This document shows positions 27,598 to 27,669 of a DNA stretch of 64,000 nt, piece after piece (position 1 is the first letter of the stretch; the number at the start of each line of letters is the position of its first letter). The stretch lies in NCBI RefSeq assembly GCF_056746865.1, contig NZ_CM163382.1; one strand, written 5' to 3'. The notes beneath the pieces are model-generated. The model saw only the letters and a list, made by a program, of their open reading frames with translations, did not search any database and was not told the DNA's origin. A program made the position numbers and the translations under genes.

Positions 27598-27669
27598 GTG
27601 AAATATTTCTTTATGGGCATTTCTTTTATGGTCATCGTTTGGGCCGGTACTTTTGCCCTGATGATCTAA
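27598..27669 (+). CDS. ypdK: Small hydrophobic protein YpdK (23 aa)
   Basis: GTG-initiated 23-codon ORF MKYFFMGISFMVIVWAGTFALMI preceded by GGAGAG Shine-Dalgarno; K-12 has this small gene between lpxP and alaC. Confidence 0.55.
   Translation: MKYFFMGISFMVIVWAGTFALMI

Follow-up and report, generated by a model that had tools for sequence, protein, structure and literature searches.

The stretch of DNA that we analysed, here called the window, comprises 64,000 nucleotides of contig NZ_CM163382.1 (NCBI RefSeq assembly GCF_056746865.1). On its plus strand, a short open reading frame (ORF), ypdK, opens with GTG at 27598-27600, runs through 22 more sense codons (AAA TAT TTC TTT ATG GGC ATT TCT TTT ATG GTC ATC, then GTT TGG GCC GGT ACT TTT GCC CTG ATG ATC) and closes with TAA at 27667-27669, giving the peptide MKYFFMGISFMVIVWAGTFALMI. 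Its ribosome-binding region, GGAGAGATG, occupies 27585-27593, with a GGAG core at 27585-27588 that lies 9 nt before the GTG. The convergent neighbour alaC, which encodes an alanine transaminase, occupies 27734-28972 on the minus strand, and its 3' end is 64 nt from the ypdK stop. An earlier note on this DNA had read the same 23-codon, GTG-initiated frame from the letters, and we recovered its coordinates, start, stop and peptide exactly. The note had also called the Shine-Dalgarno (SD) strong; the GGAG is indeed in place, but for a 4-nt core the word is generous. The wider element GGAGnGATG is kept in most Enterobacteriaceae and may extend the pairing to the 3' end of the 16S RNA across a small internal loop. 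Between the SD and the GTG there is also an out-of-frame ATG-TAA start-stop pair (27591-27596). Its ATG, which falls within the conserved GGAGnGATG, is kept in most Enterobacteriaceae and its stop is not; this ATG probably belongs to an extended ribosome-binding site and not to a mini-ORF.

RefSeq calls the identical ORF 'ypdK: membrane protein YpdK', in agreement with both the name and the position between lpxP and alaC that the note had given. The NCBIfam model NF033437 (YpdK, equivalog) scores the peptide at 57.5 bits (cut-off 30; E = 9.4e-16), with residues 1-23 aligned to profile positions 1-23 of 23. The peptide conforms to the motif M-K/R-Y-x-x-M-G-x-S ... W-x-G-T-F-x-L-M, a single hydrophobic helix of 23-24 aa, and contains every residue that is invariant among 41 distinct orthologues. 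In K-12 MG1655, ypdK is b4680 (2496921-2496992), and its 72-nt coding sequence (CDS) equals that of the window base for base. Gene, product and position are the same in the two strains, which differ only at a few positions of the leader and the terminator loop. The gene order yfdX, ypdI, yfdY, lpxP, ypdK, alaC (convergent), ypdA, ypdB is found in strain 118UI and likewise in K-12 MG1655. Exact peptide look-ups (NCBI/UniRef) already return the name YpdK for the E. coli/Salmonella form and for Enterobacter, Klebsiella, Pantoea and Serratia variants.

The gene is nearly universal in E. coli. A 361-nt query around the ORF matches 5,422 of 5,426 complete genomes, and the feature beneath the match is ypdK. 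The region is missing from 4 of the 5,426, one match sits on a plasmid-typed record, and in O157:H7 strain SS17 the 72-nt ypdK query aligns over 71 nt, a shortfall that may be a true 1-nt deletion or an error of sequencing. Of 5,423 E. coli records, 4,771 share one identical CDS and 1,071 an identical leader segment of equal length. E. coli annotation has reportedly included ypdK since the small-protein screens of 2008. PMC3009722 places ypdK in the set of 18 small membrane proteins from Hemm et al. 2008 (Mol Microbiol 70:1487), and it credits detection of the peptide by tagging to that study. As a whole, these data are best explained if the window ORF is a genuine protein-coding gene, the already catalogued ypdK, and we hold this with high confidence. 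The finding is correct but not new, as the gene is already known. The note had called the ORF easy to miss, but current annotation does not miss it: the NCBI pipeline already names ypdK in nearly every E. coli genome.

The size of ypdK is by itself no evidence, because 57 ORFs of at least 20 aa overlap the 3.5 kb at 26000-29500 and the 64-kb window holds 367 ORFs of 20-30 aa. What lifts ypdK above chance is its hydrophobicity, together with conservation that carries a coding substitution pattern. Its GRAVY score of 1.73 is reached by 1 of the 367. For conservation, we collected 80 alaC loci from other species by synteny, via the neighbouring AlaC, and searched them for a YpdK-like ORF by six-frame local alignment; locus L002 of this sample ends at a contig edge. 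Such an ORF is present in 77 of the 80 loci, on the strand opposite alaC and just beyond the alaC stop. The carriers are Enterobacteriaceae, Erwiniaceae and one Serratia; besides the latter, the genera represented are Escherichia, Citrobacter, Klebsiella, Raoultella, Enterobacter, Kosakonia, Cedecea, Buttiauxella, Shimwellia, Mangrovibacter, Pantoea, Erwinia and Mixta. The records of Serratia marcescens (L071), Erwinia endophytica (L072) and 'Pseudomonas indica' (L080) hold no copy. Of the 77, a single copy is broken: that of Candidatus Pantoea haifensis (L067), whose reading frame shifts after codon 10 (MKYALMGISFSCCFGSAPLC*).

All 77 copies start with GTG, never ATG, and all 77 have an SD-like purine motif 7-10 nt upstream. 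This motif is GGAG, except for AGGAC in locus L081 and GGGGAG in locus L060; most Erwiniaceae have GAGGAG 7 nt upstream. The check that the earlier note had proposed, conservation of the ORF with its ribosome-binding site, is thus borne out. The 76 intact copies keep frame, GTG, SD and stop position despite near-saturated synonymous divergence. Among 66 distinct nucleotide versions, the variable sites at the three codon positions number 13, 9 and 19 of 23, the pooled pN/pS is 0.27 and the median dN/dS 0.14; synonymous sites are close to saturated. Off-frame controls on the same alignment gave ratios of 1.30 and 2.08. Because substitutions fall mainly at third positions and the in-frame ratio is low while the off-frame ratios exceed 1, we conclude that the YpdK peptide is under purifying selection; the note would have given up the gene had such selection been lacking. 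Invariant or nearly so are K/R2, Y3, M6, G7, S9, W15, G17, T18, F19 and M22. The extraction pattern forced peptide positions 1-7, and the unbiased six-frame alignment gives the same conserved residues.

YpdK is among the shortest conserved enterobacterial proteins, under purifying selection over three families, and it is a well-defined unknown. Pfam has no family for the peptide, the PDB holds no chain resembling it and no solved structure containing it, and the accessible literature has no function, partner or phenotype on record. Its promoter, its leader helices and an operator-like palindrome, together with an overlooked FabR ChIP peak, offer handles on the timing and contacts of YpdK.

The gene would be driven by its own putative promoter about 150 nt upstream. 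This candidate, P1 (27392-27454, plus strand), is suggested by a conserved block, a tiling-array start and likeness to rrnB P1. It comprises an A/T-rich stretch (27392-27412), a -35 element TTGTCT (27417-27422), a 17-nt spacer, a -10 element TACATT (27440-27445), a GC-rich discriminator AGCGCC (27446-27451) and a start near 27450-27454. A plus-strand transcript on the tiling array (2494795-2494997; PMC3009722, file S3) starts 148 nt upstream of the ypdK GTG, which maps to about 27450, 5 nt past the P1 -10. In most Enterobacteriaceae loci, the block is kept as CTTGTnn-N17-GTACATTAGCGCC with an A/T-rich stretch before it, and in Erwiniaceae it is recognisable as ...TTTATTTT...GTAAATTAGCG. The pairing of ypdK with alaC holds in 77 of 80 species, but lpxP precedes ypdK in just 19 of 76 loci; as the block stays with ypdK all the same, we assign it to ypdK. 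The layout is similar to that of rrnB P1, which has an A/T-rich upstream region, cctCTTGTCA, a 16-nt spacer, TATAAT and GCGCC. GC-rich discriminators are associated with stringent control, which by inference may extend to ypdK P1. By our own count, P1 agrees with the consensus at 8 of 12 positions, which is why the promoter scan did not list it.

Further upstream on the same strand lies an operator-like block (27363-27390). It contains the palindrome TGTCG-N8-(C/A)GACA (27363-27380), whose right arm is AGACA in E. coli and CGACA in the other form, an overlapping ACAnnTGT core (27378-27385) and an 18-mer (27373-27390). The palindrome is about 75 bp upstream of the ypdK -10, and its arms are nearly invariant in the Enterobacteriaceae loci that carry the block. 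Because the arms are kept without compensatory changes, they fit a protein-binding site rather than an RNA structure, and the palindrome is probably a transcription-factor site.

The ypdK leader is roughly 148 nt long and holds two covariation-supported helices, found by running RNAalifold on 34 leader sequences, after which the helices were extended and their pairs counted. Helix 1 (27479-27537, plus strand) is a long-range stem that joins 27479-27490 (GGGGTGATGCCC) to 27526-27537 (CGGTGTCAACTC). It has 11 pairs, 8 of them changed on both sides, and 90% of cells are paired; its apex is variable, partly deletable and absent in loci L003, L012 and L030. Helix 2 (27567-27584, plus strand), GCGTAA-cagtaa-TTACGC, pairs 27567-27572 with 27579-27584 and abuts the GGAG. 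Five of its 6 pairs changed on both sides, and 87.7% of its cells are paired. Over both helices, 89% of cells form standard pairs, compared with 31-47% in controls with slid partners, double-change cells number 72, compared with 15-23, and the covariation score was reached by none of 500 shuffles. The whole ypdK transcript folds better than shuffles (z = -4.7). Its minimum-energy fold pairs the helix-1 arm differently, and we prefer the structure supported by covariation. In a local fold of the E. coli sequence, part of the SD region pairs with ypdK codons 7-10. An Rfam search over 27200-27780 gave nothing above threshold; the best match, Plastid-psbJ-2, reached 24 bits against a gathering threshold of 65.6, which is chance. 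In the columns at 27540-27547, between the two helices, Enterobacter, Kosakonia, Cedecea and Buttiauxella have TCTATACT or TCTATAAT, and E. coli has a degenerate CTGTATC. The former reads like a sigma-S/sigma-70 -10 element and could mark a second promoter.

Downstream of ypdK, we find a bidirectional intrinsic terminator (27689-27720) made of an A-tract, a stem CAGGAGCC/GGCTCCTG and a T-tract. On the plus strand, the core stem lies at 27692-27699/27704-27711 and is followed by TTTGCATTT; it can be extended to 11 bp over 27689-27714 (AAACAGGAGCC-ATCT-GGCTCCTGTTT, then GCATTT). The plus-strand hairpin has a free energy of -19.5 kcal/mol, whereas shuffles give -7.4 +/- 2.6 (z = -4.6). The minus-strand hairpin reaches -20.3 kcal/mol (z about -4.7 for the two strands) and is followed by TTTTTCATT, a better T-run than that of the plus strand. 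Given this fold, the T-run and the alaC stop at 27734, we conclude that the hairpin also terminates alaC. The hairpin terminator announced in the earlier note is therefore real, but it is common to ypdK and the convergent alaC rather than private to ypdK. The sampled species retain it, and their stems show compensatory changes, as in CAGGCGCC/GGCGCCTG, GGGAGCC/GGCTCCC and GGGACGC/GCGTCCC. A simple terminator scan passed it over, on our own reading probably because the first Ts are taken up in the stem. The ypdK mRNA would thus be roughly 265-270 nt long, with a structured leader of ~148 nt, the 72-nt ORF and a short 3' end at the terminator shared with alaC.

Published data show that ypdK is expressed. 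In the supplement of a ribosome-profiling study on K-12 (PMC10746267), ypdK is listed under 'previously known sORFs', with RNA at 17-175 RPKM and footprints at 1.6-14 RPKM. These footprints appear in nine of nine samples, albeit at low density, so that the ribosome-profiling signal for which the note had asked exists. In this one data set, translation efficiency is low, at 0.04-0.23 (PMC10746267). At pH 5.8 compared with pH 7.6, ypdK RNA rises by a log2 value of 1.55, or about 3-fold (adjusted p 0.003), and footprints do not rise with it (-0.27; PMC10746267). On the tiling array, the ypdK transcript is up about 2-fold after UV (PMC3009722). We looked for a LexA box as the source of the UV induction and saw none at the right spacing in the ypdK intergenic sequence; a sigma-S ChIP peak in the neighbourhood of lpxP maps to the yfdY-lpxP region and not to ypdK. 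Transcription of the gene is thus evident, and ribosomes occupy it, if sparsely. The invariant GTG, the structured leader, the rrnB-P1-like promoter and the low ribosome occupancy point to translation that is either regulated or held at a low level.

What might such a peptide do? YpdK is hydrophobic from residue 4 to its end and is predicted to be essentially one transmembrane helix. Lys2 is the only charge in most variants, although 12 of 41 add a C-terminal Glu and 4 of 41 a Lys. The N-terminus is probably cytoplasmic, because the formyl-Met/Lys2 end holds the only positive charge in most variants (the positive-inside rule). The conserved residues lie at both membrane interfaces (K2, Y3, M6, G7, S9 at one; W15, G17, T18, F19, M22 at the other) around a variable core, which argues for specific helix-helix contacts. 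A single conserved helix face is unsupported: the conserved residues are found all round the helix (conservation moment 0.19, permutation p = 0.18) and so do not demonstrate one packing interface. The invariant G7, S9, G17 and T18, together with conservation at two ends, would suit a helix held among specific protein contacts better than a generic membrane anchor or a pore-forming toxin.

CydX (37 aa) is a single-helix accessory small membrane protein of E. coli, and KdpF and CydX are encoded inside the operons of their partners. KdpF (29 aa), AcrZ (49 aa) and MgrB (47 aa) are reviewed in PMC12648545. All four share with YpdK a length below 50 aa, one transmembrane helix, enterobacterial conservation and no catalytic capacity; YpdK is shorter than any of them and is without a soluble tail. 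By analogy, and with moderate confidence, we take the most likely role of YpdK to be that of a subunit which assists or regulates a larger inner-membrane protein, against which it would pack as KdpF, AcrZ, CydX and MgrB do. Unlike kdpF and cydX, ypdK is a monocistronic gene that has a promoter and a terminator of its own, and for that reason its locus gives no clue to the partner.

Three other readings of the locus have to be weighed against a translated accessory subunit. If the conservation were due to a non-coding RNA or to a DNA element, for example a small RNA or the 3' region of alaC, then the ORF would be incidental and untranslated. The excess of ypdK transcript over footprints, the conserved RNA structures of the flanking leader and terminator and the fold of the whole transcript relative to shuffles (z = -4.7) could all be read in this way. 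The variation within the frame is that of a coding sequence, however: it falls at third positions, with the contrast of 0.27 in frame to 1.30 and 2.08 out of frame, and the 76 intact copies retain frame, GTG, SD and stop position. Footprints in all nine samples and the lack of an Rfam family above threshold point the same way, and we regard an incidental ORF as extremely improbable. We give no more credence to the proposal that the true product is a 38-aa protein from the ATG at 27553 (MKSFRRNSNYAERCKVKYFF...), the start to which the program-made ORF list extends the frame. The frame is open from there in the window and in one other Escherichia genome (L003), but in Citrobacter, Klebsiella, Enterobacter and most others a stop codon interrupts it, between one and a few codons ahead of the GTG. 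Moreover, the only SD-like sequence for that start, AGGTG, sits 2 nt from the ATG, and the upstream stretch holds RNA helix 2, with compensatory changes and no coding pattern.

If YpdK were instead a membrane-damaging peptide like the type I toxins Ibs, TisB, ShoB and ZorO, then its mRNA would be silenced by the leader and the peptide made only under stress. In favour of this reading, these toxins too are tiny and hydrophobic, with a long structured 5' leader and low translation, and YpdK is very short and almost wholly hydrophobic, with conserved helices in its ~148-nt leader and an efficiency of 0.04-0.23 despite appreciable RNA. The rise of ypdK RNA after UV (about 2-fold) and at pH 5.8 (about 3-fold), and the local E. 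coli fold that pairs part of the SD region with codons 7-10, also count in its favour. Type I toxins are typically patchy and multi-copy, however, whereas nearly all genomes have one copy of ypdK, in strict synteny with alaC over at least three families. Purifying selection acts on the specific residues G7, S9, G17 and T18 and not merely on hydrophobicity. Again unlike these toxins, ypdK has no antisense RNA that we could find: no conserved antisense promoter is seen in the aligned leader and ORF, which is a weak test made on sequence only, and a minus-strand promoter scan of the leader returned none. The sole minus-strand TTGACA (the reverse complement of 27529-27534) is specific to E. coli. 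We judge a toxin to be very unlikely, and an accessory subunit of an inner-membrane protein remains the reading that we favour.

A lead on the regulation of ypdK comes from Salmonella, for which the E. coli YpdK sequence is also recorded. FabR ChIP-chip in this species placed a site in the intergenic region between ddg (lpxP) and yfdZ (alaC), confirmed by ChIP-qPCR in three growth conditions (PMC4804515). The authors of PMC4804515 thought regulation at this site unlikely, as the flanking genes converge; ypdK is unmentioned. The ypdK promoter is the only one evident in the lpxP-alaC intergenic region. In the window, the core motif of PMC4804515, ACAnnTGTnnnnT, is found at 27378-27390, and the nonamer ACACTTGTA upstream of K-12 ypdK equals the centre of the fabB FabR operator. 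The best ungapped matches to the 18-bp fabA/fabB-type operator (AGCGTACACGTGTTAGCT) agree at 11 of 18 positions, at 27373-27390 and 27436-27453. Some 80-100 sites across the 64 kb of the window do as well, which puts this score at the level of chance; we therefore claim no FabR site from sequence alone and treat FabR control only as a lead. The ypdK candidate also differs from the FabR-repressed fabA, fabB and yqfA/trhA in lying near -70 and not over the -10, and the TGT of its core is not kept in Klebsiella or Enterobacter. As most other 'putative' FabR peaks in PMC4804515 are tRNA and ribosomal-protein promoters, the rrnB-P1-like ypdK promoter could have been listed non-specifically. Our literature search found no report of ypdK expression in a fabR mutant; a K. 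pneumoniae fabR paper within it gives no expression data on the genome scale. We suggest, tentatively and with considerable doubt, that ypdK is the unrecognised target of this 'orphan' FabR site. If so, then YpdK joins the unsaturated-fatty-acid and membrane-lipid homeostasis regulon with fabA, fabB and trhA/yqfA. The link would be the first functional handle on YpdK, and lpxP, a palmitoleoyl transferase gene, adjoins it in some genera.

Elsewhere in the window, the sensor-kinase gene ypdA/pyrS is interrupted (29349-30660), its frame stopping after 220 of 565 codons. The sequence departs from that of K-12 at about 29945, with an extra ~710 bp that include an ORF for an IS200-like transposase on the minus strand (30051-30557; Pfam Y1_Tnp, 130 bits); the insertion is missing from most E. 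coli genomes. As a by-product of the operator scan, we also noticed near-perfect 18-bp palindromes of the form TTCTTACA-NN-TGTAAGAA at 24186-24203, 25177-25194 and 25215-25232. One finds them upstream of frc and in the stretch from yfdX to ypdI, and they look like EvgA boxes of the acid-resistance regulon.
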